This document shows, piece by piece, positions 1,552 through 63,879 of a stretch of 64,000 nt of DNA. Position numbers and translations under genes: made by a program. Numbering within the stretch: the stretch's first letter is position 1; every line of letters starts with the position of its first letter. A model generated the notes under the pieces. That model saw nothing but the letters and a program-made list of their open reading frames with translations, did no database searches and had not been told where the DNA came from. This DNA is from a virus, in IMG/VR virus record IMGVR_UViG_3300032299_001203, positions 1 to 64,000 of that record. One strand, given 5' to 3'.

Positions 1552-1701
1552 ATGAGCAAAAAAAGAATGATGTCAAAACAGCAGCGGCTATATTACGAAT
1601 ATCAGAACAAGGAAAAAGTTCGGCAGGAATTAATAGAATATATAAAGTTACAAAGAGAAGTGGAACAACTAAAAGATTACAGGAAAAATAATGCTATTTG
1701 A
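1552..1701 (+). CDS. small basic helical protein (49 aa), not in the ORF track
   Basis: TAGGAG RBS at 1541-1546, ATG at 1552, MSKKRMMSKQQRLYYEYQNKEKVRQELIEYIKLQREVEQLKDYRKNNAI*; overlaps the rSAM start. Confidence 0.6.
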   Translation: MSKKRMMSKQQRLYYEYQNKEKVRQELIEYIKLQREVEQLKDYRKNNAI

Positions 1702-3148
1702 AATCAAAGCTACTCGGTTTAATGAAGGTGATACAAAAACTTTTTATTATGATAATATGTCCAACATCTTAAAGGATGAGGATGGAAATGTTTTTGAATA
1801 TCCACAAGAACAAAGAAAGATAAACAACAGTTTAAAACCATACAAACCGTTTGACAAAAACAGGCCATTAAAAAAATCTAAATTAATTTCACATTTAAAA
1901 ATTCAATTAGGTTTGAGTTGCAATTACTCTTGTGATTATTGTTCTCAGAAATTTGTTGAAAGGCAACCAGAAACTTCCAAAAAAGACCTTGATGTTTTTA
2001 TGGAAAAATTAGAGGCTCTGCATTTCGATGAAGATATTGGATTGAGAATTGAATTTTGGGGCGGTGAACCATTGGTTTATTGGAAAACATTAAAGCCATT
2101 GACTGAAGCTATCGTACAAAAATTTGCTTCTTGGAAAACAAAACCTCGTTTGAGTATTATTACAAATGGATCCATTCTAACCGATGAAATTATTGATTGG
2201 TTAATGATGATGGATTTTGCTGTATCCATATCACATGATGGTCCTGGTCAATTTGTTCGTGGTCCAGATCCCTTTGATGATCCAGAAAAGAAAGAAACTA
2301 TCCTTGGTTTTTATAGAATGATGACACGCCTTGGTAAAAGCTTTAGTTTCAATGCAATGCTCAATTCCAAAAATCAAAGTAGAAAAGAAATTTATGATTG
2401 GTTCGTAAATTTAACCGGTGACGAAAATGTTATTCTTGGTGAAGGATCTTTGGTTGATGCTTATGATGAAGAAGGTATTTCAAATTCTTTACTTACAAAA
2501 CAAGAACATTTTGAATTTAGAAAAAAATCATTTGGTGAATTGTATGGCAGCAATGGTAAAATAGGGTTTGCGGCTCAATTGGGTAAAATTGATGGTTTAA
2601 TTAACTCTATTTTAAACCATGAAGAATCCAAATATTTGGGTCAGAAATGTGGTATGGATGATGAACACACCATATCGGTAGATTTACGTGGAAATGTAAT
2701 GACTTGTCAAAATGTCAGTTCTTTAGAAATCTCAAAGAATGGAGAATCTCACCATGGCGGCAATCTAAGTAATTATTCCAATGTAGAACTAAAATCGGTC
2801 ACTCATTGGTCCAATCGTAAAGAATGTCCAGAATGTCCTGTATTACATATTTGTAAAGGTGCCTGTATGTTCTTGGATAAAAAGTTTTGGGATATTTCGT
2901 GTGCCAATGCTTATTCGGATAATGTGGCTCTATTTGCCGCAGCATTCACGTTAGTGACCAACGGATATGTGCCCACTTTAATTAAAAGTGATACTTTACC
3001 ATTGGACAGGCAAGATATTTTTGGAGATATCTTTGAACACAAAGAAGAAACTAACCATAAAAAAATCATACCAATCAAAGTGGTAAAGGAAATTGTTGGT
3101 GAAGTGGACGATATTCCCGTGTATGGTAAATCTCGTTTGGAAGTATAA
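1691..3148 (+). CDS. radical SAM enzyme with SPASM domain (peptide/protein maturase type)
   Basis: CNYSCDYC, FWGGEP, SISHDG; C-terminal KCG..DLRGNVMTC..CPECPVLHICKGAC..SC. Confidence 0.92.
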   Translation: MLFEIKATRFNEGDTKTFYYDNMSNILKDEDGNVFEYPQEQRKINNSLKPYKPFDKNRPLKKSKLISHLKIQLGLSCNYSCDYCSQKFVERQPETSKKDLDVFMEKLEALHFDEDIGLRIEFWGGEPLVYWKTLKPLTEAIVQKFASWKTKPRLSIITNGSILTDEIIDWLMMMDFAVSISHDGPGQFVRGPDPFDDPEKKETILGFYRMMTRLGKSFSFNAMLNSKNQSRKEIYDWFVNLTGDENVILGEGSLVDAYDEEGISNSLLTKQEHFEFRKKSFGELYGSNGKIGFAAQLGKIDGLINSILNHEESKYLGQKCGMDDEHTISVDLRGNVMTCQNVSSLEISKNGESHHGGNLSNYSNVELKSVTHWSNRKECPECPVLHICKGACMFLDKKFWDISCANAYSDNVALFAAAFTLVTNGYVPTLIKSDTLPLDRQDIFGDIFEHKEETNHKKIIPIKVVKEIVGEVDDIPVYGKSRLEV

Positions 3149-3151
3149 ATA
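3144..3151 (+). promoter_or_regulatory. T4-type late promoter TATAAATA
   Basis: exact consensus ending 33 nt before the ATG at 3185; gp33 is encoded in the window. Confidence 0.75.
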
Positions 3152-3184
3152 GTACAATAAACAACACTTTAAAGAGTATTTAAA

Positions 3185-4084
3185 ATGCCATTACCAACAT
3201 CAGGACAACCTATATCGATAGCCAATATTGAAGCGGAAGTCGAAATTCCTGTAGGAACAGCGACCAATTTAGGTTTTTTAAATGAGTACATAAAACCTGG
3301 TATAAGACCAGCCACACCAAATATGGCCGGATTTTGGGGTTTAAAATACTATCTACAAAACAATGCAGGCAACTGCAATGACGCTGGGGCAAGTAATTGT
3401 AACTGTAATTCTGCAGATTGTACGGTAATTCAATGCAATGCAACAAATAATTGTACCAACATAGGTGCACCAAATTGTGACGTACAAAAATGGTTACAAA
3501 CAGGTGACTGTAACATTGTTCCCACTCCTGTGTATAATTGTGTTAGTAATCAAAATTGTTTTACTTATAACTGTAATTGTAGTAAAATTATTTGTACCAA
3601 ACTTTTTGAAATCGGTTTAATGAAACGAAACATTTTTGAAGCCGATCAAGCATTTGGTGAATATCTCATCAAAACTAATCCAGATATTTACAATGGATAT
3701 CGTGCATGGGCAGAAATTGTTGTTGATTGGATGGAAGGAAAAGGTCCTAAAATGATGTTTTGGATGAGTGATGAGAAGTTTAGTGTGGCTGCCAAAAAGT
3801 GGTCAACAACTTGGGCTCACGATATTGCAACTCCTTGGGCTGAAGAAATGGCATATATGATGGGTGAAAAAGAAGCTGGTAGCTTGGCAGGTAAAATGAT
3901 TATGGTCTTTGGTATCCCTATCTGTAAAGGTATTGGTTTATGGCAACGTTGGTTCGGATCAAGTAAAAAACAACCAGGATTTTTAAAAGGCGCAGCACTT
4001 GTCATTATTTTTGTTATGTTTAAATTGGTAGCTGAACTTGGTCGAATGATTGAGAAACTCACACCAAAAAGGAGTGTCGTTTGA
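3185..4084 (+). CDS. Cys/Asn-rich protein, candidate substrate of the modification cluster
   Basis: N-terminal MPLPTSGQPIS; 12 [N/D/Q]C dipeptides in aa 63-132; KIICT-type C-terminal domain with hydrophobic helices. Confidence 0.8.
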   Translation: MPLPTSGQPISIANIEAEVEIPVGTATNLGFLNEYIKPGIRPATPNMAGFWGLKYYLQNNAGNCNDAGASNCNCNSADCTVIQCNATNNCTNIGAPNCDVQKWLQTGDCNIVPTPVYNCVSNQNCFTYNCNCSKIICTKLFEIGLMKRNIFEADQAFGEYLIKTNPDIYNGYRAWAEIVVDWMEGKGPKMMFWMSDEKFSVAAKKWSTTWAHDIATPWAEEMAYMMGEKEAGSLAGKMIMVFGIPICKGIGLWQRWFGSSKKQPGFLKGAALVIIFVMFKLVAELGRMIEKLTPKRSVV

Positions 4085-4404
4085 TGAGAGAATTGAGAAA
4101 AACTTTTTTAGGAAAAGAAATTAAATTAGACCCACTCGAAATAACAACAGAAGATGATGGTTCAAAATATATACATGATCATGTAACTTATTTTTTTGAT
4201 GTAATTAGTTATGGAATTATATGCTCTCTCGATCAACGAGATAAAGAAAGATATTTTAAAATGATAACAGATCACGAAGAAATGATAACAAAATTATATG
4301 GGTATTCGATTCTCAATTCTAAGATATTTTTGCCTGTAGCTGTAAGAAATGGTATTGATAATAAATTAATCAAAGAATATAAAACATGGTTGGCTAACAA
4401 ATGA
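4084..4404 (+). CDS. hypothetical protein in modification cluster
   Basis: AAGGAG RBS upstream; start coupled to the previous stop. Confidence 0.7.
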   Translation: MRELRKTFLGKEIKLDPLEITTEDDGSKYIHDHVTYFFDVISYGIICSLDQRDKERYFKMITDHEEMITKLYGYSILNSKIFLPVAVRNGIDNKLIKEYKTWLANK

Positions 4405-4790
4405 GTGAAAAAAATACTTTTACTAGTTTAGAATGTCTAGAAACATTTGATGGAAACACAGTTATCTTCAAAGAAGAATATTTGTGTAATTTCTTTAAAA
4501 CTAAGTTTGAGAGAAAATATATGAGGTTAACACAAGAAGAAAAAGAAGAAGTTTCTTTTGTTGATCAAGAATATGGTGATTTATTGGATAAAGTATGGAG
4601 ATTACCATTACAAGAAGCATTAAAAACAATGGGTGCAGATTGGGCGGCTCAAAATGAAAAAAGAAATCCTGTAGAGGAATATGAACACGCTTTGTCTTTA
4701 TCAAAAGACGCCGATTTATCAGAAGAAGCACATCAAGCAAAATTAGAAAGATTGAGAATTTCTGCAGAGATTTTTGCAAAAAATAATTAG
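4401..4790 (+). CDS. hypothetical protein in modification cluster
   Basis: ATGA overlap with the previous gene; acidic, helical. Confidence 0.7.
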   Translation: MSEKNTFTSLECLETFDGNTVIFKEEYLCNFFKTKFERKYMRLTQEEKEEVSFVDQEYGDLLDKVWRLPLQEALKTMGADWAAQNEKRNPVEEYEHALSLSKDADLSEEAHQAKLERLRISAEIFAKNN

Positions 4791-4804
4791 TATTATTTTA
4801 TATT

Positions 4805-5518
4805 ATGAACCAGAGTTTTAAAACAAAAGAAGATCGAGATCGTTACCATTGGTATCAAAATGCACAAAACATGTTTTGGCAAAGTCCAATTTGGGAAGAA
4901 CAAACAAAATTTGATGAGAAGTTTAATGAAGTTTTGCTAGAAGAAATTTATAGCATTGGAAAAAATATTGTTTTGGGTGTGGACAAAGATCCACACAATA
5001 GTATATGGGACTACAGTAGACCCAATTTAAATATACTTAAACAAGAAATTATCGACATAGTAACAAAAAAAATTGCACAAAATATTCCACAACTTAGAAT
5101 GTTGAATATCCGTGGGTGTGAACATTTTATGGGTTGGGTGAACGTGCGTGAACCAGGTGAACGCCTTGAAGTACACGGACACACCGAATCGGCGATTGCA
5201 GCAACCTATTACATAAAGGCCAAAGAAGGATGTGGTGATTTGGTGGCATTTGATTCATCACACGCAATCGATTGGGAAAATAATTGTTTGAGTGGTAGTC
5301 CTTTCATGCGAGCCCGAAGATTCAAACCAGTTGAAGGTAGATTAATATTTTTTCCATCATATGTTTTACATGGAGTCGATGAAAATAAATCGGATGATTT
5401 AAGGATTTCATTGTCAACCGATTTACGAAAAGTGGTCGAAAAGGATGCATCAAATACAGTTATTTTAAAAAGTTGGGCAGGCCGAATGGCTAAAATCAAA
5501 GAGTGGAAACTTGAATAA
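4805..5518 (+). CDS. 2OG-Fe(II) oxygenase, TIGR02466-like
   Basis: WVNV..PGE..HGH, YY, GRLIFFPSYVLHGV, RISLS. Confidence 0.85.
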   Translation: MNQSFKTKEDRDRYHWYQNAQNMFWQSPIWEEQTKFDEKFNEVLLEEIYSIGKNIVLGVDKDPHNSIWDYSRPNLNILKQEIIDIVTKKIAQNIPQLRMLNIRGCEHFMGWVNVREPGERLEVHGHTESAIAATYYIKAKEGCGDLVAFDSSHAIDWENNCLSGSPFMRARRFKPVEGRLIFFPSYVLHGVDENKSDDLRISLSTDLRKVVEKDASNTVILKSWAGRMAKIKEWKLE

Positions 5519-6051
5519 TGTTTGCCAAGTTGGAAAAATCATTCGAAAAACCAATCTATGCAATTACCGATTCACTAAAAACATTTAAAGATGAGAATGG
5601 TAAAGGTATTGACTATAAAAAAGTTTGGTCTCCTGAAGCCGAAAAAATTTATGGATTTTTACCAAAAAAATATTGGCCAGATTTTCACTTGACAATAATG
5701 ACAATTGACTGTATAATACCTCCACATACAGATACAGAAATTATTACTTCAATTAATTTTTATTTACAAACAGAAGGATGTAAAACAACATTCTATACAC
5801 CAAAGGTTTCTCTGCCCAAAACAACACAAATTGAAAATCAAACCAACGGCCATATTTTTTACGAAGAAGATTTGATGGAAATTGGTAGTTTTATTGCAAA
5901 AGATTTTGAGGTGTGGGTACTTGATGTGAGTAAAATACATGGTGTAAATGGTGATTTTAAATTAAGAAAGGCATTAACCCTTGGAACTTTTGCACATAAG
6001 TATGAGGATGTAATTAAAATGTTAAAGGAAACAGGCAATGTCATTTGTTAA
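5518..6051 (+). CDS. putative Fe(II)/2OG oxygenase (double-stranded beta-helix fold)
   Basis: PPHTD...LDVSKIHGV...RKAL gives an HxD...H triad. Confidence 0.7.
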   Translation: MFAKLEKSFEKPIYAITDSLKTFKDENGKGIDYKKVWSPEAEKIYGFLPKKYWPDFHLTIMTIDCIIPPHTDTEIITSINFYLQTEGCKTTFYTPKVSLPKTTQIENQTNGHIFYEEDLMEIGSFIAKDFEVWVLDVSKIHGVNGDFKLRKALTLGTFAHKYEDVIKMLKETGNVIC

Positions 6052-6706
6052 ACTAAAACATTTGTACGAATATATGCCTCATACAATTATACCAAAAGGT
6101 CAAGCCGATTCGTTTGCTGGAAAATATGGATTAGGTGTAAGGCACAATACAATTTGGACACCAGAACCTGAACGTGAAACTCTATATAAAGTTATTCCTG
6201 AAAGATACTGGAAAGATTTTCAAGTAACCAGAATGTCAATAAATTGTTTGTTATTGCCTCATGTGGATAATGATTTTATAACAACAATTAATTTTTATTA
6301 TGAACCGGGAGATTATAAAACAATTTTTTGGAAAGCAAAACCTGGAGCAAATTCTTGGAAAACAGAAGAAGATAGGCACACAGGTGTTACAACTTCTAAC
6401 ATGGAAGCAAAAGATATTGATGTTGAAGATTTAAAAACTAAAGTTAAAGAGTTTGTGGCAGAAAAAAAGAATATGCCAACCTGTGAAGAAATTACATATG
6501 TCGATGCTGTATACACTTTTGATGATGTGTATGAAATTGGTTCATTTGTTGCCAATAAAAATGAGGCGTATTTGTTGGATGTTCGGGTAGCACATAATGT
6601 TGAACCGTTAGATGGCACAAAACTCAGAAAAGCTTTTGCTTTGAGAACCCGACATTATGATTATGGACAAGTATATGAAATGCTACAAGAAACTGGAAAT
6701 TTATAA
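6038..6706 (+). CDS. putative Fe(II)/2OG oxygenase, paralog of the previous gene
   Basis: LPHVD...LDVRVAHNV...RKAF. Confidence 0.7.
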   Translation: MSFVKLKHLYEYMPHTIIPKGQADSFAGKYGLGVRHNTIWTPEPERETLYKVIPERYWKDFQVTRMSINCLLLPHVDNDFITTINFYYEPGDYKTIFWKAKPGANSWKTEEDRHTGVTTSNMEAKDIDVEDLKTKVKEFVAEKKNMPTCEEITYVDAVYTFDDVYEIGSFVANKNEAYLLDVRVAHNVEPLDGTKLRKAFALRTRHYDYGQVYEMLQETGNL

Positions 6707-6717
6707 AGGAAATAAAA

Positions 6718-7491
6718 ATGTTTTTTGAGAAATTAGATTACACCGTTGACATTGAAAAATTAAAAAAAGAAGTGCGTGAAAGTGTATTTACTTTAGGTGA
6801 CCAAGTTATACAAGGTGAAGAATTTGAAACACCAAAATATCATGGCTTTGGTGGTTGGAGTTTGTTAAGTAGAAATGCCACATGGACCGATGGATGGGAA
6901 GCAATTCAATTGGAACAAGGACAAACATTAGAATCTTTTTTACCCACCCAAGAATTAATTTATAAAGCTTATAAACATTTTAATCTTTACCATGGTTTAG
7001 AACACGATAAACCAACTGAAGCATATGTTGGTGAAATTAAAAAAGTAATAGATGATATCCGTGACTTAGGATTTTATCCTTGTAGAGCCAGAGTTTCGTG
7101 TTTAAAAGCTCATTCAAAAAGCTTAGTACATAGAGATGCAGATTCTGCAGAATATATGACACGCATACATATTCCGCTATGGACAAATGAAAAATGTGTT
7201 CATATCTGTCAAGGTAAAAATTTACATTTACCAGCAGATGGAGGTGTTTGGATGCTTTGGACAAACCTTTGGCATCAAATTAGAAACGATTCCGATGAGG
7301 ATCGTTACCATATAATTATGGATGCATACGATACGAAAAAGATAACAAAATATTGTAAATATGAAGGAGATTTTGAACTGTATCGTAATTATGTTCGTGG
7401 TCAAATGGAAAAAATTGACGAGGTCGAATTAACAGAAGAAGATATTGATTTCTTTGAAGCAATTAAAGAAAAATATTTGGCTAAAAAATAA
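6718..7491 (+). CDS. aspartyl/asparaginyl beta-hydroxylase-like oxygenase
   Basis: HRD, RIHIPLWTN, HLPADG, WHQIRN..DRYHII; AAGGA RBS. Confidence 0.8.
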   Translation: MFFEKLDYTVDIEKLKKEVRESVFTLGDQVIQGEEFETPKYHGFGGWSLLSRNATWTDGWEAIQLEQGQTLESFLPTQELIYKAYKHFNLYHGLEHDKPTEAYVGEIKKVIDDIRDLGFYPCRARVSCLKAHSKSLVHRDADSAEYMTRIHIPLWTNEKCVHICQGKNLHLPADGGVWMLWTNLWHQIRNDSDEDRYHIIMDAYDTKKITKYCKYEGDFELYRNYVRGQMEKIDEVELTEEDIDFFEAIKEKYLAKK

Positions 7492-9012
7492 ATGGATGAT
7501 CGTCATGGTATTATCTTTACTGGTATGGAAAGAACCAGAACAATCAGCCGTCCTGCGGGTGCAGTGCGGCTAAGAACTTTTTTAGAAAAACACAATTACA
7601 ACATTGAAGTTATAGATTATTTTGGTAATTTTACTGAGAAAGAACTGGAATTACTTTGTGAAAGATATATTGGACCAAAAACATTATTTGTTGGTATAAG
7701 TATAACATTTGTGTATGCTTTTGATAAAATTAATTACTTATTTAAACACATCAAAGAAAAATACCCAAAAGTAAAAACACTAATTGGTGGTAGTGAAACG
7801 CCAATTGAAGGCGTAGATTTAACACAAGTGGATAAAATTGTTTGGGGCTACGCCGAAGAAACCATGTTACATTACATGAAGTTTCTTAGCAGAAAGCTTT
7901 TAAATGATTTGCCATGGGTGCCTTACAGAGGAACAAAATCAATTAATGCAGAGATGTTATATAAAAACGACTCTAGTGATTTGACAATTAAATGGATAGA
8001 AAGTGATTTAATTAAAAACAATTTTTTACCCATCGAAATTAGTCGAGGTTGTATTTTTAGATGTAGATTTTGCTCATTTCCACTCTTAGGTAAGAAAAAG
8101 AATGATTACATTCGCCATGTAGATAACTTATCTGCTGAGTTGAGAAGAAATTATGAAATGTTCGGTGTCAATAATTACTGGTTTAATGATGATACCTTTA
8201 ATGACAATGTGGTCAAATTGGAATATGTCGCTGAAGCAATAGCTAAAAGTGGTGTAAAAATAACATACACAGCTTTTTTAAGAGCTGATTTGATTGAGGC
8301 TTTTCCAGAAACTATTCCCATGTTGGGTGATACTGGTCTTGTTGCTGCAACCTTTGGATTGGAAACATTTCATCCAGAAGCAAAAAAAGCCATTGGCAAA
8401 GGACTAGATAATGAAAGGCAGTTTGAAGCAATTAGACAATTGAAGAAATACAAACCAATTTATACTTACACGGGTATGATTTGTGGATTACCAGGAGAAC
8501 CAATTTCTAGTGTGTTGAATAGTCAAAAAATGTTGATTGAACAAAACTTTGAAGTGTTTGATAATTGGGATTGGTGGCCACTTTTAATCAGAAAAGGTTC
8601 AATAAGTCGTTTAAGTGAATTTGAAAAAGAATATGCAAAATGGGGTTATTCTGAAATGTTACCTGGAGAATACATTATTCCTGCTGGAGAAACCGATACA
8701 AAATATGGTAACGAAAATGATGGTGTGATGGTATGGAAAAGTAAATATGCAAATTGGTACACCTGCAGAGCAATTGCCAATAATCTAAACATGGAAACAG
8801 AAAAACACAGAATTAAAGCTGGAAAATCCATATATGGAAATGCAGATAAAGGAGTTAGTATTAATCATGATGTTTATGAACTAGTTGGTTTGGGTGTTGA
8901 TGTTAAAGATATTATTGATGGCAATTTTGATAAAAGCTTTTTAAATAGAAAAATACAAGAAGCTGATCAAACCATTCTTGAATATAAAAAATTAAAGTTG
9001 GGATTATTATGA
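7492..9012 (+). CDS. B12-binding-domain radical SAM enzyme
   Basis: N-terminal RPAGA..EVIDY..FVGIS..LIGG..GYAE; EISRGCIFRCRFC; DDTFND; GLET; GLPGE. Confidence 0.85.
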   Translation: MDDRHGIIFTGMERTRTISRPAGAVRLRTFLEKHNYNIEVIDYFGNFTEKELELLCERYIGPKTLFVGISITFVYAFDKINYLFKHIKEKYPKVKTLIGGSETPIEGVDLTQVDKIVWGYAEETMLHYMKFLSRKLLNDLPWVPYRGTKSINAEMLYKNDSSDLTIKWIESDLIKNNFLPIEISRGCIFRCRFCSFPLLGKKKNDYIRHVDNLSAELRRNYEMFGVNNYWFNDDTFNDNVVKLEYVAEAIAKSGVKITYTAFLRADLIEAFPETIPMLGDTGLVAATFGLETFHPEAKKAIGKGLDNERQFEAIRQLKKYKPIYTYTGMICGLPGEPISSVLNSQKMLIEQNFEVFDNWDWWPLLIRKGSISRLSEFEKEYAKWGYSEMLPGEYIIPAGETDTKYGNENDGVMVWKSKYANWYTCRAIANNLNMETEKHRIKAGKSIYGNADKGVSINHDVYELVGLGVDVKDIIDGNFDKSFLNRKIQEADQTILEYKKLKLGLL

Positions 9013-9623
9013 TTTGGACAAAAGAAGAAATATCAATCGCAGATGAGTTGATAGAGATTGCACCAAAATTACGTGACGAATTTTTAGATTATCACAAAGA
9101 TTTTCATACCACATTCAAAGGCGGTATATCATATGCTGCAGCCAATCCTCTAACAATTCTAACAGATGAAGAAAAATCTATTTGGAAAGTGGAAGGATTA
9201 AGATATGTTTGCCGTGACCAAAAAGTTGAACGAAATATGTTTTTGGATTCAAAAGTATCAAAAGTATTTCCAACAGCAACAGCATTAACAAAAAAGTACC
9301 TTGACTATTGTGGTTGTAGTGGTTATAGTGTTTTGGAACCTGGAGGAGTAATTCATAGTCATTCGGATATTGAAAACACTTCACACTCCACTATTAGAAT
9401 ACATATACCATTAATTATACCTGAAGGTGATGTTTGCCTTGAAACTGGAGGTATTAAAAATGATTGGTCAAATTTGTTCGCTTTCGATAATGGAGAGTTA
9501 CATAGTGCATACAACAGAACAAACAAGAGAAGGTTAATTTATATCATAGATATAGCTAGATCATTTTTATCAATACCAAGTTGGGGTCTTAAAGTTACTT
9601 CAATTTCAATACCTAAAGTTTAA
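9009..9623 (+). CDS. aspartyl/asparaginyl beta-hydroxylase-like oxygenase
   Basis: YSVLEPGGVIHSHSD, IRIHIPLIIP, FAFDN..HSAYN..RRLI. Confidence 0.85.
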   Translation: MIWTKEEISIADELIEIAPKLRDEFLDYHKDFHTTFKGGISYAAANPLTILTDEEKSIWKVEGLRYVCRDQKVERNMFLDSKVSKVFPTATALTKKYLDYCGCSGYSVLEPGGVIHSHSDIENTSHSTIRIHIPLIIPEGDVCLETGGIKNDWSNLFAFDNGELHSAYNRTNKRRLIYIIDIARSFLSIPSWGLKVTSISIPKV

Positions 9624-9627
9624 AATA

Positions 9628-10290
9628 ATGTTTAATTACTGCCCACCAAAACAATTACAAGATTTACAATCAGAAACTTTTCCTGATGGTAAACGATTTT
9701 ATAAACTGCCTGATGGTACAAAATTGCCATCTGTTACCACGGTGATTGGCGCACAAAAGAAACATATTTTTCAAGCATGGCGTAACAAAGTTGGTGAAGA
9801 TGTTGCCAATGCCATTACCAAAAAAGCTACCTCTCGTGGTACAAATGTTCATACATTATGTGAACGATATCTAAACAATGAATCATTAGGTGATATTATG
9901 CCTGATGCACGAGAAATGTTTTTATCAATTAAACCGGAATTAAATCGTATCAACAACATTCACTACCAAGAACAGACACTTTGGTCAACACAATTAAACA
10001 TGGCCGGCCGTGTTGATTGTATTGCTGAATTCGATGGTATTCTTTCGGTAATTGATTTTAAAACGTCCAAAAAAATCAAGAGCCATGAAGATATTGAAGA
10101 TTACTTTTGGCAAACATCTGCCTACGCCTTGATGTATGAGGAGTTGATTGGTGAACCTATCCATGATTTGGTTATCATCATGGCCGTTGAGGATTCAAGT
10201 CCTATCGTGTTCAAACAAAAGACCGAAGACCATATCACAGGCCTAGTCAATGCCATTTCATATTATGAAAAAGGTGGTAAAATATTATGA
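9628..10290 (+). CDS. PD-(D/E)XK exonuclease (Cas4-like, T4-like exonuclease A)
   Basis: PSVTTV, RGTNVH, AGRVDCI..VIDFKTS, Q..AYA.M. Confidence 0.88.
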   Translation: MFNYCPPKQLQDLQSETFPDGKRFYKLPDGTKLPSVTTVIGAQKKHIFQAWRNKVGEDVANAITKKATSRGTNVHTLCERYLNNESLGDIMPDAREMFLSIKPELNRINNIHYQEQTLWSTQLNMAGRVDCIAEFDGILSVIDFKTSKKIKSHEDIEDYFWQTSAYALMYEELIGEPIHDLVIIMAVEDSSPIVFKQKTEDHITGLVNAISYYEKGGKIL

Positions 10291-12032
10291 AAATATTAGG
10301 GATTCACAGAGGTCACAATGGCGGTGTTTGTCTTTTAGAAGATGGTGAAGTTACTTTTCACTTGGAGCAAGAAAGACTTGACCACCATAAAAATTCAAGT
10401 GAACTACCCATAAAAATAATTCAAAAAGCAATTGAGTTAGCAAATTATGAGGTTGATGTTTTAGTTTTATCTGGTTTCACAAAACCAATTCCCGCTGACA
10501 TAAGATGTAATGAACAAATTGATTGGTATTTTGGTAATGATTCAAATAAAAAAAATAATGAACAAGTGTGGAAGGAATCTAACACACAGAACTTGTATGT
10601 TGAACTTTTAAAATTTTGGAACAAAAAACCTTTTGAATTTTATTCTTATCACAATAATCATCATGAGTTACATGCAGCTGTTGCTTTTTATAATTCGGGA
10701 TTTACTGAAGCAATTTCAGTTGTTGCTGATGGATCTGGTGCACTAGTTAGTAGTGTTCCGGGTCAATTGTATGATCAGTACAATTACGAAATTCAATCAG
10801 TATTTTATTCAACTTATCCGTCAACATTCACTTCTGTTATAAAAGAGTGTACTTATCAAAAAAATAATCCAAAAATTAATCATCGAAGTTTAGGACTAAA
10901 ATTTACTACCGCAGCAATATTTTTGGGGATGAATGGTGGTGGAGATGCCGGCAAAGTAATGGGATTAGCTTCTTATGGCAAAAAAGATAATGATGTACCA
11001 AATATCGATAATACTGTATTTGATTGGGACAAAATTTTCTTTAAAAGAATGAATGATTATGCTCTTAGTTTAAAAGATAAAAATTCTATTAAACATTGGG
11101 TTATTCCCAACGATGAAAATTTTCAAAAATATGCAAATCTTGCTTATTGGGTACAAACAGATACACAAGAGTATATGTTAAATTTAATTAAACGAGGAAT
11201 AAAAGAAATTGGAATTAAAAATGTTACAATTTCTGGCGGTTATGGATTTAATGTAGTTGCAAATTATTATATTAGAAAAAATCTACCTGACGATATAAAT
11301 TTGTATGTTGAACCCATTTCAAACGATGGCGGTATGGCCATTGCTGCAGCAAAATTATGGTGGCACCAAAACACCGGTGATAGAACAATTAGACCGTTGA
11401 AATCATTATACCTTGGTGAAAAACCAAACTATGATAACCTGGCGGGTTTATTAAATAATGATGAATCTTTAATTGATACAAACTATTCGAATATTATTGA
11501 TTTAATATTGGATAAAAACATCGTTGCCATATACCAAGGAAGATCAGAATCGGGACCAAGGGCATTAGGTAATAGGTCTATATTATTTGATCCAAGAGTG
11601 CCTAATGGAAAAGATATAGTTAATGTGGTCAAGAAAAGAGAATGGTACAGGCCTTTTGCAGGCTCTATAATGGAAGAACATGTGCACGATTGGTTTGATA
11701 TGGCTGGCCTAAAAAATTCTCCATTTATGATGTACGGAGTTGATGTATTAGAAGATAAAAAATCTCAAATACCAGCAATCACTCATGTAGACGGAACTTG
11801 CAGAATACAAACTGTTACAGAAGAACAAAATTATCATTATTATAATTTAATTAAAGAATTTTATAATAGAACTGGTGTGCCAATATTATTTGATACGAGT
11901 TTTAATTTGGCTGGCGATACAATGGTTGAAACAATAGAAGATGCACTATGGACATCAAGAAACTCTGATATTAAATATATCTATTTTGCCGATTTAGGTA
12001 AGTTGTATGTTAAAAATGGCAATATTGAATAG
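10287..12032 (+). CDS. carbamoyltransferase, NodU/CmcH family
   Basis: ILGI..HN, EQERL, HHELHA, GKVMGLASYG, SGG..NV.AN, GRSESGPRALGNRS, KKREWYRPFA, HVDGTCRIQTV, TSFNLAG. Confidence 0.93.
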   Translation: MKILGIHRGHNGGVCLLEDGEVTFHLEQERLDHHKNSSELPIKIIQKAIELANYEVDVLVLSGFTKPIPADIRCNEQIDWYFGNDSNKKNNEQVWKESNTQNLYVELLKFWNKKPFEFYSYHNNHHELHAAVAFYNSGFTEAISVVADGSGALVSSVPGQLYDQYNYEIQSVFYSTYPSTFTSVIKECTYQKNNPKINHRSLGLKFTTAAIFLGMNGGGDAGKVMGLASYGKKDNDVPNIDNTVFDWDKIFFKRMNDYALSLKDKNSIKHWVIPNDENFQKYANLAYWVQTDTQEYMLNLIKRGIKEIGIKNVTISGGYGFNVVANYYIRKNLPDDINLYVEPISNDGGMAIAAAKLWWHQNTGDRTIRPLKSLYLGEKPNYDNLAGLLNNDESLIDTNYSNIIDLILDKNIVAIYQGRSESGPRALGNRSILFDPRVPNGKDIVNVVKKREWYRPFAGSIMEEHVHDWFDMAGLKNSPFMMYGVDVLEDKKSQIPAITHVDGTCRIQTVTEEQNYHYYNLIKEFYNRTGVPILFDTSFNLAGDTMVETIEDALWTSRNSDIKYIYFADLGKLYVKNGNIE

Positions 12033-21162: not shown

Positions 21163-21597
21163 CTATAGTCCTAGATGTTCTTCCGTTATAAGCTTAAACT
21201 CCCAGCCACGGTCCAAACAATATTCCGTTGCCGCTTTCCATTTAGCTTGATTGATACCATAAGTTACTACTTCATTTATGTATTGCTTTGTTAATCTTTT
21301 TTTAGGTTCGGGTGTGATTGTTTGTTTTTTAGGTTTAACCTCAAGTAACATGGTTTTTAAGATTCCATTTCTAGTCCGAACTTTAACCAAAAAATCTGGA
21401 AAGTAACGGTGCCACAGACCATCTTTTGGAGATTTATAAGGAATGATCAATTCTTCTGATGCCCATGATATAATGTCTGGATTTTTGTCGAGCCAATTCA
21501 TCATTTTACACTCCCATGAGGAGCGATAAATGATATTATTAGGATCTCCAACGTATTTTTGGGGATTAGAAGGTGTAAAACGTCCATTATAAGCCAT
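21163..21597 (-). CDS. gp4: head completion nuclease (TnsA-like)
   Basis: KY.GDP.NIIYRSSWE, WASEE..IPY, HRYFPDF, EVKP, NQAKWKAA. Confidence 0.93.
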   Translation of the reverse strand: MAYNGRFTPSNPQKYVGDPNNIIYRSSWECKMMNWLDKNPDIISWASEELIIPYKSPKDGLWHRYFPDFLVKVRTRNGILKTMLLEVKPKKQTITPEPKKRLTKQYINEVVTYGINQAKWKAATEYCLDRGWEFKLITEEHLGL

Positions 21598-21604
21598 ATA
21601 AATA
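21597..21604 (+). promoter_or_regulatory. T4-type late promoter TATAAATA
   Basis: exact consensus about 30 nt upstream of ATG 21634. Confidence 0.8.
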
Positions 21605-28885: not shown

Positions 28886-34897
<6,012 letters not shown>

Positions 34898-62067: not shown

Positions 62068-62075
62068 TATAAATA
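62068..62075 (+). promoter_or_regulatory. T4-type late promoter TATAAATA
   Basis: exact consensus ending 25 nt before ATG 62101. Confidence 0.75.
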
Positions 62076-62100: not shown

Positions 62101-63879
62101 ATGCCAGCTACACAATTACAATTCAGAAAAGGTAACACCGCCCAGCACTCCACCTTCACCGGTGCGTTTGCCGAGGTTACAGTAGACACCGACAAGAAAG
62201 TTATTGTTGTTCACGATGCCGTCACTCCTGGTGGTACTCCAATGGCAACCGCAGCGTTTGCTCAAGCTGCTTTCAACAAAGCGAATACAACTGCCACCAA
62301 TAATAGAATTACAGTAAGTAATACCGCAGGTTATGTTCCGACGGCCAACACATTATTACCTGGTGAATTATTTGGTAATTTATTTGATGGTAAATTGTAT
62401 ATGCAGCTTACAACAGGTCGCATTATTGACCTTTCAACAAGAGCTGTAGGTAAAACATTCTATGTTTCGACAACCGGTTCAGATACTTTTGATGGAGTAA
62501 CGCCATCTGGTGCGAAAGCAACTATTCGTGCTGCATTAGCCTTGGCTCAACCAACTGATATTGTTCAAGTATTTGCTGGTACTTACACAGAAATTAATCC
62601 TTTAATTCTTCCACAAAACGTACAGTTAGTAGGTGCTGGTGAAAGAGCTTGCATCATTCAGCCTTCCGATCCAACTAAAGATATTATTTGGGTAAATAAC
62701 AATTCTTATGTGACCGGTTTTAAATTTATAAATTATTCTAAATCTGCGATTGCTTTTCCAGATTTAGTCATTGATGCCAATACTACGGTAGCTGCAACAC
62801 AAAATACGTTTACTCTACGATCAGGTGTACCTTACGATAATTTTTATAATAGTATGAGAATTACTATTACTGGTGGTATTGGTGCTGGACAATTTTCAAA
62901 CGTGGCATCTTATAATGCCGCAACTAGAGTTTGCACAATGGATGTAAATTGGAATCCTTTTCCAACCAATACATCCACCTATTCAATTGGCATTCCTTTG
63001 AGAACAACACCTGCAGCCAACACAACAAGATATACAACCAATATTACAGGTAGTCCTTACATTTATAATTGTTCTTCTATTACTTCAAATGGTACCGGCA
63101 TTAAAGTTGATGGAGCTTTATCAACAGGAAATAAGAGTATTATTTCTGCACAATTTACACAAGTAAATTCTAATGGCCGAGGCATTCATATTACCAATGA
63201 CGGATATTCTCAATTAGTTTCTATTTACGGTATTTTCTGTGACACTGCTTTTTTAGCTGATAATGGTGGTACTGCTTCACTAGGTAACTGTAACGTTAAC
63301 TTTGGTAACAAAGGTCTAGTGGCTAATGGTAAAGGTGCTTTAGCAATGACAGCTCGTTTTGCTAATACATCGGCAGAGGCCTGTACCTCTATTTTTCTAA
63401 ATACAATTAGTTCAAATACCGATTTAGGTATCACCGCCAATGTACCGTATTCTGGTTTAGTAATGAAAATTACTGGAGATGGTGTAGACAATTATTATTC
63501 AGTCGCTGAGGCAACTCCATTGTCTGCAGGAAATACACAAGTAACATTTCAAACTGGATTACCTGTTAGTTGGCCAAGTGAAACAACAGTTTCATTTTTT
63601 CAACAAAGTCAATTAAGAGCTTCTGGCCAAACATTTGAATTTGTTGGTGCTGGCACCAGTATAAATTCTTTGCCAAAATCAGGCGGAGTACCAAATGTGG
63701 AATCTCAAATTATTACAATTGGTGAAGGCGCAGTGTTTGCTACATCTACCGATCAAGACGGAAACTTTAAGGTATCGGAGTTAGTAATTAATCAATCAAC
63801 ATCAACCATTACAGGTAGAACTTTCTCAAAAAGTCTTTTTGCAGAAATGACGCCATATATTCTTGCTCTGGAGACTTAA
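62101..63879 (+). CDS. fibre/tailspike: Mtd-N-like domain plus pectin-lyase-like beta-helix
   Basis: LQFRKG.T..H..FTGA..EVTVDT.K..VHD..T.GG; FYVST.GSD..G..TI.AAL..GTYTE. Confidence 0.8.
   Translation: MPATQLQFRKGNTAQHSTFTGAFAEVTVDTDKKVIVVHDAVTPGGTPMATAAFAQAAFNKANTTATNNRITVSNTAGYVPTANTLLPGELFGNLFDGKLYMQLTTGRIIDLSTRAVGKTFYVSTTGSDTFDGVTPSGAKATIRAALALAQPTDIVQVFAGTYTEINPLILPQNVQLVGAGERACIIQPSDPTKDIIWVNNNSYVTGFKFINYSKSAIAFPDLVIDANTTVAATQNTFTLRSGVPYDNFYNSMRITITGGIGAGQFSNVASYNAATRVCTMDVNWNPFPTNTSTYSIGIPLRTTPAANTTRYTTNITGSPYIYNCSSITSNGTGIKVDGALSTGNKSIISAQFTQVNSNGRGIHITNDGYSQLVSIYGIFCDTAFLADNGGTASLGNCNVNFGNKGLVANGKGALAMTARFANTSAEACTSIFLNTISSNTDLGITANVPYSGLVMKITGDGVDNYYSVAEATPLSAGNTQVTFQTGLPVSWPSETTVSFFQQSQLRASGQTFEFVGAGTSINSLPKSGGVPNVESQIITIGEGAVFATSTDQDGNFKVSELVINQSTSTITGRTFSKSLFAEMTPYILALET

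Follow-up and report, generated by a model that had tools for sequence, protein, structure and literature searches.

The DNA examined here, referred to as the window, consists of the first 64 kb of the 104-kb viral contig IMGVR_UViG_3300032299_001203 from IMG/VR, which is estimated to be 62% complete. It comes from a T4-like myovirus and contains, close to its start, a cassette of ten genes on the + strand (g1 to g10, 1691-9623). The first of these genes encodes a radical S-adenosylmethionine (SAM) enzyme with a SPASM domain (g1, 1691..3148, 485 amino acids [aa]), a putative maturase of Asn-Cys proteins, and the second a three-module protein of 299 aa (g2, 3185..4084) with a central block rich in Asn-Cys (NC) dipeptides. 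Homologues of g1 were found to be tied almost without exception to NC-rich proteins encoded nearby. We consider it rather likely that g1 is a radical SAM/SPASM maturase and that its substrate is the NC-rich block of the neighbouring late protein g2. The proposal rests on the enzyme families, the gene order, a late promoter and the near-obligate linkage of enzyme and NC tract, all of which come directly from the analysis. This phage and the related ones that carry such a pair probably modify a host-contact protein chemically.

Linkage of the radical SAM enzyme to Asn-Cys proteins

The linkage was followed in three independent surveys, the third of which, of a second enzyme clade, is described in a later section. 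The first covered 80 viral loci carrying a homologue of g1 at 64-99% identity. A homologue of g2 follows the radical SAM gene in 78 of them, and the contigs of the other two end right past that gene. The second survey was a search with the C-terminal 165 residues of g2 alone. Proteins with this C-terminal domain and an NC-rich middle have a radical SAM gene nearby in 32/32 loci, whereas for those with a Gly-rich part or a DUF4815-type front of 1,500-2,090 aa, neither this gene nor a homologue of g5 to g8 lies within 6 kb in any of 44 loci. In view of these last two figures, the enzyme tracks the Asn-Cys module and not the C-terminal domain. A check set beforehand had been whether homologues of the enzyme occur unlinked to NC-rich open reading frames (ORFs). 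This proved not to be so, be it in the 78 informative loci of the first survey or in the 32/32 versus 0/44 comparison of the second, and the linkage is essentially complete in two clades of the enzyme as well as in isolated phages. The survey counts are not phylogenetically independent; the pairing is nonetheless seen with enzymes of two clades and with proteins of three architectures. The tie between the radical SAM enzyme and (NC)n tracts is real, and near-obligate across both clades and several phage families.

A chance grouping of functionally unrelated genes in a variable island would agree with the position of the cassette among accessory genes (a PD-(D/E)XK nuclease, a carbamoyltransferase) and with the varying gene content at its edges. 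It is contradicted by the co-occurrence counts, the pairing being near-obligate over so wide a range of enzymes, architectures and phages and absent in the controls, and we give this explanation next to no weight. Because they are found in most of the 80 loci, g1, g2, g5, g6 and g8 are regarded as the core of the cassette.

Both the enzyme class and thioethers at the protein level are already known. Searches of the literature turned up no report that links a radical SAM enzyme to phage fibres or to Asn-Cys proteins; the 'radical SAM maturase' that a paper on cyanophages (PMC12801897) names among antibiotic genes is unrelated.

The Asn-Cys block of g2 and its flanking modules

g2 belongs to a family of at least 442 proteins. 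It has no match in Pfam, PHROG or NCBIfam, and an Atlas search with it returned no named neighbour. Three modules can be distinguished: a fibre-type N-terminal motif (aa 1-56), the NC-rich block, which is the candidate modified region (aa 57-133, 3353..3583), and a helical C-terminal domain starting with KIICTKL (aa 134-299, 3584..4084). The sequence-only reading that preceded this work had listed 12 [N/D/Q]C dipeptides in g2, and the count came out the same, with 9 NC, 2 DC and 1 QC and every Cys exactly where it had been placed. Shuffling of an 81-aa NC block gave a mean of 4.3 such dipeptides, and not one of 200,000 shuffles came to 12. Conservation across the g2 family is highest at the NC positions (top-residue frequency 0.88, entropy 0.52 bits) and intermediate in the C-terminal domain (0.76); what stands between the NC positions is variable (0.63, 1.44 bits) and tolerates insertions and other indels. 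AlphaFold2 (AF2) yields no confident fold for the block, with a pLDDT score (predicted local distance difference test) below 50. The C-terminal domain is modelled as five to six helices (pLDDT 80-88), for which a fold search found no counterpart in the PDB and, in BFVD, only homologous C-terminal domains. The hydrophobicity of residues 264-290 would suffice for a helix in a membrane (hydropathy 2.1), and the domain may serve as a membrane anchor, as an assembly chaperone or as a pro-domain that is removed.

The modules on either side of the block are found in other phage proteins. The N-terminus of g2 is 39% identical over 51 aa to P0118, a Gly-rich protein that has the same C-terminal domain and lacks an NC tract, and the C-terminal domain itself is common to Gly_rich_2, Laminin_G_3 and DUF4815 proteins. 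Since both the N- and the C-terminal modules are shared, the NC block of g2 sits in the slot that is filled by a Gly-rich module in the sister proteins. Among the carriers of the C-terminal domain, only a Laminin_G_3/Gly_rich_2 protein (locus L106) matches baseplate-wedge and tail-fibre PHROGs, and the DUF4815 giants match PHROG families of unknown function. When isolated phages were searched with g2 by tblastn, the sole match was a homologue of the C-terminal domain in cyanophage SynMITS9220M01, where the protein is flanked by genes annotated 'fiber protein' and 'tail fiber'; a megablast search of isolated phages with the cassette gave no match.

A T4-type late promoter box, TATAAATA (3144..3151, + strand), lies 34 nt upstream of the g2 start and overlaps the stop of g1. 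The box is present in 3 copies in the window, against 9 expected, each just upstream of a gene, and in 37/78 related loci it is found at -29 to -41 from the start of g2. Its modules and promoter suggest that g2 is a protein of fibre or adhesin type that is made late, and not a free peptide.

Three further observations concern these elements. The other exact copies of TATAAATA in the window lie at 21597-21604, by the baseplate tail-tube-cap gene, and at 62068-62075, before the ORF at 62101-63879. The C-terminal domain of g2 (KIICTKL..ADQAFG..PDIYNGY.AWA..VVDWM) ends many fibre-like phage proteins, including DUF4815 giants of 1,500-2,090 aa (44 loci, L103-L158). Another protein with this domain, P0115, which is probably truncated by its contig, has an N-terminus like the end of a Hint domain or intein (..YICEGLLSHN), followed by an Ala/Pro-rich linker and the C-terminal domain. 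The idea that the C-terminal domain is the equivalent of the Hint domain of phage JWF (see below) was rejected, since in P0115 a Hint end appears to precede the C-terminal domain, which makes the two separate modules.

A second enzyme clade and isolated phages

An intermediate locus, L111, led to a second clade of radical SAM enzymes, 40-50% identical to g1. In 16 of 19 non-redundant loci of this clade, a protein encoded 1.5-4 kb upstream of the enzyme ends in an (Asn/Asp-Cys)n tail, and two of the three misses have no upstream DNA. These tails are of the ...NCNCNCNC type, for example ...NCYNCNCNCNCNC, ...NCNCNCNCCGC, ...NCNCDCNCNCCGGA and ...GNCACACNCACSD. The same tail motif occurs three times in control loci (494 kb, six-frame translated), and in no case at a C-terminus. 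The 311-aa NC-tailed protein of locus L164 has an N-terminus in common with the tail fibre of Achromobacter phage JWF, and that of locus L165 (280 aa) combines a fibre-type N-terminus with a coiled coil. Judged by such similarities, the carriers of NC tracts in clade 2 are plainly tail fibres.

Homologues of the enzyme at 42-44% identity are encoded by three isolated phages, namely JWF, the JWF-related Achromobacter phage 2-1 and Ralstonia phage RSP15; a scan of genome contigs with the JWF enzyme matched one short contig of a metagenome-assembled genome. In JWF the enzyme, annotated as an anaerobic sulfatase-maturating enzyme (anSME), is encoded two genes past gp028, a gp36-like tail fibre (L160:3811-5262). 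This fibre has a NCNCDCNCNCSC run directly before a Hint domain; the run, ...QNCNCDCNCNCSC, passes at once into the domain (Hom_end_hint, 47.5 bits, from C308). Autocleavage by Hint could leave the NC run as the mature C-terminus of gp028, as in the stand-alone NC-tailed fibres. The gene order in RSP15, a member of the Ackermannviridae, is side tail fibre gp048 (ending ...SNTNCQCGN), gp047, the HxD-type oxygenase-like gp046, the radical SAM enzyme and a DUF4815 giant. As JWF and RSP15 are cultured phages that carry the pairing, the idea is directly testable.

Some loci encode small proteins of 93-103 aa that end exactly in (NC)n and resemble a leader followed by a core. Moreover, a set consisting of a radical SAM enzyme, a B12-type radical SAM enzyme and Fe(II)/2-oxoglutarate (2OG) hydroxylases recalls the proteusin-type clusters of peptides that are made by ribosomes and modified after translation (RiPPs). 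The product could then be a RiPP-like peptide that is released when g2 or the small NC-tailed proteins are cut and that acts as a toxin, as a signal or against host defences, and not a part of the virion or of an adhesin. This appears very unlikely to us: family scans of the cassette proteins revealed neither a protease nor an exporter, the small NC-tailed proteins themselves bear fibre-type N-terminal motifs, the modules flanking the block of g2 are those of fibre-like proteins, and NC tails are borne by true tail fibres of 280-480 aa in JWF, L164 and L165. Compared with a RiPP pathway, in which a precursor of leader and core is modified and the core set free by proteolysis, g2 is a protein of three modules and 299 aa in a cassette without protease or exporter; the Hint domain after the NC run of JWF could cleave there.

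Two other kinds of gene were noted in other loci. On the contig of L111, which is also that of L161, a 343-aa protein with the PP-loop motif SGGIDST is encoded inside the NC-tail/radical SAM cassette (L111:8806-9837), and a second paralogue lies downstream of the radical SAM gene; both look like ATP-pyrophosphatases or asparagine synthetases, and neither is present in the window. In L176:3298-4326 and L188:2-1216, another radical SAM gene, also SPASM-like, is found immediately upstream of the main one.

The radical SAM/SPASM enzyme g1

g1 scores above the cut-offs of both Radical_SAM (PF04055, 39.1 bits, cut-off 29.5) and SPASM (TIGR04085, 34.2 bits, cut-off 27), and matches phrog_1802 (E 1.7e-62). 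Across 32 homologues, with identities as low as 42%, the CxxxCxxC motif (C77/C81/C84) and GGEP show no variation. The same holds for G334 and the seven SPASM Cys (C320, C339, C379, C382, C388, C392, C404), in agreement with the pattern CX9-15GX4C ... CX2CX5CX3C ... C for two auxiliary [4Fe-4S] clusters. The earlier identification of g1 as a radical SAM enzyme with CxxxCxxC and SPASM motifs is thus borne out by both models and by the invariance of the motif Cys.

The best NCBIfam matches of g1 are PapB, the geopeptide maturase and QhpD, all thioether maturases that use Cys together with Asp, Glu or Asn, and its nearest solved relatives are RiPP maturases (8VPO and CteB, 5WGG). As to precedents, NxxcB joins Cys to Asn at the beta-carbon while an auxiliary cluster binds the thiol (PMC9389541), and QhpD and CrpC form thioether cross-links in whole proteins (PMC13692751). 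On the strength of these matches, structures and precedents we propose that g1 may form thioether staples. A complex prediction for g1 with residues 1-145 of g2 gave a score of 0.00; as it was run without controls, it speaks neither for nor against binding.

Oxygenases and the B12-type radical SAM enzyme

The sequence-only reading had also announced five oxygenases with HxD/H..H motifs, two of them resembling Asp/Asn beta-hydroxylases, and all five were recovered, three by Pfam and two by invariant motif and fold. g5 (4805..5518) is a 2OG-Fe(II) oxygenase of the 2OG-FeII_Oxy_5 type (PF13759, 61.5 bits, cut-off 27; phrog_81), and stays below the cut-off of the narrower TIGR02466 (52.2 bits vs 62.5). 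g8 (6718..7491) and g10 (9009..9623) belong to the Asp/Asn beta-hydroxylase family Asp_Arg_Hydrox (PF05118, 38.6 and 46.2 bits, respectively, cut-off 22.6); their substrates may be Asn/Asp of a protein or, as for LpxO, a lipid. No Pfam family matches g6 (5518..6051) or g7 (6038..6706), which are paralogues (30% identity, E 4e-30), g7 bearing a 45-aa insertion. H70, D72, H141 and R150 are invariant in the g6/g7 family (28 sequences), and the AF2 model of g6 (pLDDT 92.3) is a double-stranded beta-helix whose nearest folds in a Foldseek search are the protein hydroxylases NO66, MINA53 and YcfD (E ~1e-4, query TM-score 0.44-0.48). A g6/g7 profile had no match among PDB sequences, and the placement came from the fold search. 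With the double-stranded beta-helix predicted for g6, an HxD...H triad and a basic residue, g6 and g7 are assigned to the 2OG-Fe(II) oxygenase superfamily.

Homologues of g5, g6 and g8 are present in 68, 70 and 71 of the 80 loci, respectively, in all cases following g2. Genes of a similar kind recur in the second clade. In L165, a 2OG-FeII_Oxy_5 gene (29.4 bits) lies between the NC-tailed fibre and the radical SAM gene; the HxD-type oxygenase-like protein c14 of L163 is homologous to gp046 of RSP15 (E 3e-18). Desaturase-like membrane proteins are also encoded between NC-tailed fibre and radical SAM enzyme in unrelated genomes, and desaturase-like His-box proteins are found in the clade-2 cassettes L163, L175 and L185. 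Homologues of g5 to g8 were undetected by BLAST in most clade-2 loci.

g9 (7492..9012) is a radical SAM enzyme, putatively of the B12-binding type, which had been described beforehand as having a cobalamin domain. Its radical SAM part is well matched (PF04055, 67.6 bits), and the B12-binding match is below the curated cut-off (PF02310, 27.1 bits, E 4e-6, cut-off 32.1); its best NCBIfam match is the PhpK family (98 bits vs a cut-off of 600). The profile searches that had been suggested in advance gave scores above the cut-off for SPASM and Asp_Arg_Hydrox and below it for TIGR02466 and B12-binding. As g9 is present in only 20/80 related loci, methylation is not a core step. g9 and g10 are accessory, lineage-specific additions found in about a quarter of the loci.

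Proposed pathway and its alternatives

In the pathway proposed here, g2 would be a small fibre- or adhesin-like protein in which the usual Gly-rich middle has been replaced by 12 fixed Asn/Asp/Gln-Cys anchors with variable loops. The Cys thiols would be held on an auxiliary Fe-S cluster of g1, and the 5'-deoxyadenosyl radical would take a hydrogen from a carbon of a neighbouring side chain, Asn or Asp being the most plausible ones. Stapled by the resulting thioethers, the block would form a knot that, in the reducing cytoplasm, resists proteases and is independent of redox state. The co-inherited g5, g6/g7 and g8 would hydroxylate residues of the same block, and g9 and g10 may add optional decorations in the lineage of the window virus. 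A plausible benefit is that a host-contact protein, although folded in a reducing cytoplasm, would gain a rigidity like that given by disulfides, the variable loops forming the binding surface. More generally, we advance as a tentative but quite possible model that in many phages, among them T4-like myoviruses, siphoviruses and a member of the Ackermannviridae, a radical SAM/SPASM enzyme is dedicated to turning (NC)n tracts at the tips of fibres or adhesins into a cross-linked and hydroxylated structure, often together with oxygenases of the Fe/2OG and di-iron types. Such a RiPP-type modification of the virion would provide a rigid tip despite the reducing cytoplasm, with loops that bind the receptor. 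The notion of a shared pathway, already put forward in the sequence-only reading, is supported in part, by the linkage, by a putative substrate that looks like a late fibre-type protein and by oxygenase-like genes that recur with the pair in distant phages; methylation as a core step has been dropped from it.

Several observations weigh against this pathway. In the NCBIfam scan, g1 falls below the curated cut-off of every named maturase family, including PapB (NF047865, 73.8 bits vs 340, with a match confined to residues 66-185), QhpD (TIGR03906, 65.7 bits vs 453), CrpC (TIGR04463, 46.7 bits vs 525) and the anaerobic sulfatase maturase (TIGR03942, 44.5 bits vs 349). It resembles SPASM enzymes that do not form thioethers at a similar level (DynA, 62 bits; anSME, 44.5 bits), and only about 65 aa precede its radical SAM core, fewer than in the usual RiPP recognition element (RRE). 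g2 contains only 3 NxxC, and the spacing of its NC dipeptides is unlike that of any characterised thioether motif. The hydrophobic C-terminal helix of g2 would suit a membrane-anchored protein that is not part of the virion, and the cassette of the window phage is located near replication genes (gp59, gp32), outside the main tail module. As to the other enzymes, g10 is present in 18/80 loci and has weak matches to LpxO and OlsC, and in seven related loci (L029:11440-12896 and six more) two tandem FA_desaturase genes (PF00487, 48 and 34 bits) lie between the radical SAM gene and g2.

Some of these points would be accommodated by the same pair of enzyme and substrate with a different chemistry, such as a sactionine alpha-thioether, conversion of Cys to formylglycine, epimerisation, C-C or C-O cross-links, or an NC block that serves as a metal, Fe-S or disulfide scaffold. 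For anSME and DynA, g1 matches nearly all of the model, for PapB and QhpD only the first 120 residues of the core, and the annotation of the JWF homologue as an anSME points the same way, as does the lack of a confident AF2 fold for the block. In addition, CxC and NCNC runs resemble metal-binding tracts. Neither metal binding nor formylglycine formation, however, explains the strict occurrence of Asn or Asp before Cys. The recognition motif of anSME is C/S-x-P/A-x-R, and this motif is absent from the g2 block. Furthermore, the characterised SPASM enzymes with Cys-rich substrates all form thioethers (PMC9389541, PMC13692751). A chemistry other than the proposed stapling is in our view improbable.

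The points concerning the additional enzymes bear on another possibility, that g1 alone acts on g2, and that the oxygenases, the B12-type radical SAM enzyme and the desaturases are auxiliary enzymes for host lipids, lipopolysaccharide (LPS), nucleotides or other proteins that happen to share a late operon. Given the desaturases in the cassettes of relatives, the weak likeness of g10 to LpxO and OlsC and that of g9 to lipid and hopanoid methylases, the view that some of these enzymes act on lipids or LPS is a live rival. Moreover, g9 and g10 are missing from three quarters of the loci, most clade-2 loci are without BLAST-detectable homologues of g5 to g8, and T4-like marine and freshwater phages have many orphan 2OG oxygenases. 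It is set against this that 68-71 of 80 loci have g5, g6 and g8 after g2 and that none of these accompanies any of the 44 C-terminal-domain proteins without an NC block, that oxygenase-like and desaturase-like genes recur between NC-tailed fibre and radical SAM enzyme in unrelated architectures (L163, L165, RSP15), and that the nearest folds of g6 are protein hydroxylases. We judge a role of g1 alone to be unlikely, though deserving of serious consideration.

Enzymes are known to staple peptide natural products by thioethers, as well as two proteins of cells, QhpC and CrpA; for a virus particle or a phage adhesin we found no such report. If g1 does staple the NC block of g2, this would represent a new class of post-translational modification of virions. 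It would also account for phrog_1802, a widespread family of orphan phage enzymes, and in part for the puzzlingly many 2OG oxygenases of aquatic T4-like phages. Moreover, the NC staples, fixed in place, and the loops that vary between them would make up a compact, genetically encoded scaffold that could help in engineering stable binders.

Genomic setting of the cassette

The T4-like nature of the window virus is evident from a gp59-type helicase loader, a gp32 single-strand-binding protein, a baseplate hub, a tail-tube cap and gp6/gp7-like wedge proteins. The cassette, in a region of 32-36% G+C, had been described as ten contiguous, co-oriented genes, and all ten ORFs are indeed present at the coordinates given for them, on the + strand, with neighbours that overlap or are separated by at most 37 nt. 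The two genes between g2 and g5 encode small proteins without a family: g3 (4081..4404, 107 aa) is present in 31/80 related loci, and the acidic g4 (4401..4790, 129 aa) in 18/80. Two genes past the cassette, at 10287-12032, lies the carbamoyltransferase gene (Carbam_trans_N/C, 90 and 191 bits); since a homologue is found in only 1/80 related loci, it does not belong to the conserved set. Further along the window, an ORF of 2,003 aa (28886-34897) is located in a stretch of 46-51% G+C, compared to ~33% elsewhere.

Comparison with known systems

The closest parallels in layout are QhpD/QhpC and CrpC/CrpA, where a SPASM radical SAM enzyme is likewise encoded beside a Cys-rich protein instead of a short peptide (PMC13692751). 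In these systems, too, the Cys-rich region is poorly modelled by AlphaFold, and QhpD is among the three best NCBIfam matches of g1. By score, however, g1 is in neither the QhpD nor the CrpC family, and the substrate motif here is N/D-C, compared to C-x-x-D/E/Q in theirs. Unlike either of them, the present system is found in a T4-like phage of lytic type, with a fibre- or adhesin-like substrate and several co-inherited oxygenases.

In terms of chemistry, the streptococcal RaS-RiPP system NxxcB/NxxcA includes the only characterised radical SAM enzyme with Asn as thioether acceptor and Cys as donor (PMC9389541). The (NC)n tails described here contain overlapping N-x-x-C. NxxcA itself is a short peptide under quorum regulation, and g2, with its 12 NC pairs, has only 3 NxxC.

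Of the ranthipeptide maturases, PapB (freyrasin) is the best NCBIfam match of g1 (74 bits), and CteB (SCIFF) its second-best solved relative (E 2.7e-8). Both have a full SPASM domain as g1 does, and Cys-rich substrates with carboxylate or amide acceptors. Unlike the members of these families (NF047865 and TIGR03974), g1 stays far below the respective cut-offs (340 and 425), with matches covering the radical SAM core only. Its N-terminal region is ~30 aa shorter than the RRE-containing N-terminus of CteB, and PapB and CteB, unlike what is proposed for g1, yield small peptides.

Proteusin clusters such as that of polytheonamide combine a radical SAM enzyme, a B12-type radical SAM enzyme and Fe/2OG hydroxylases acting on an Asn-rich ribosomal product. 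They differ from the g2 system in that their substrates have no Cys, the classes of radical SAM enzymes are different and the product is a secreted or stored peptide.

A final comparison can be made with the Gly-rich modules of fibre tips. The NC block has no sequence similarity to the Gly-rich domains of T-even gp38-type adhesins, and gp38-type modules need no modifying enzyme. Nevertheless, the Gly-rich motifs and hypervariable segments of gp38 resemble the conserved anchors and variable loops of g2, and in the sister proteins of g2 a Gly-rich module of the Gly_rich_2 type (PF21722) is found at the place of the NC block, flanked by the N- and C-terminal modules that g2 has as well.

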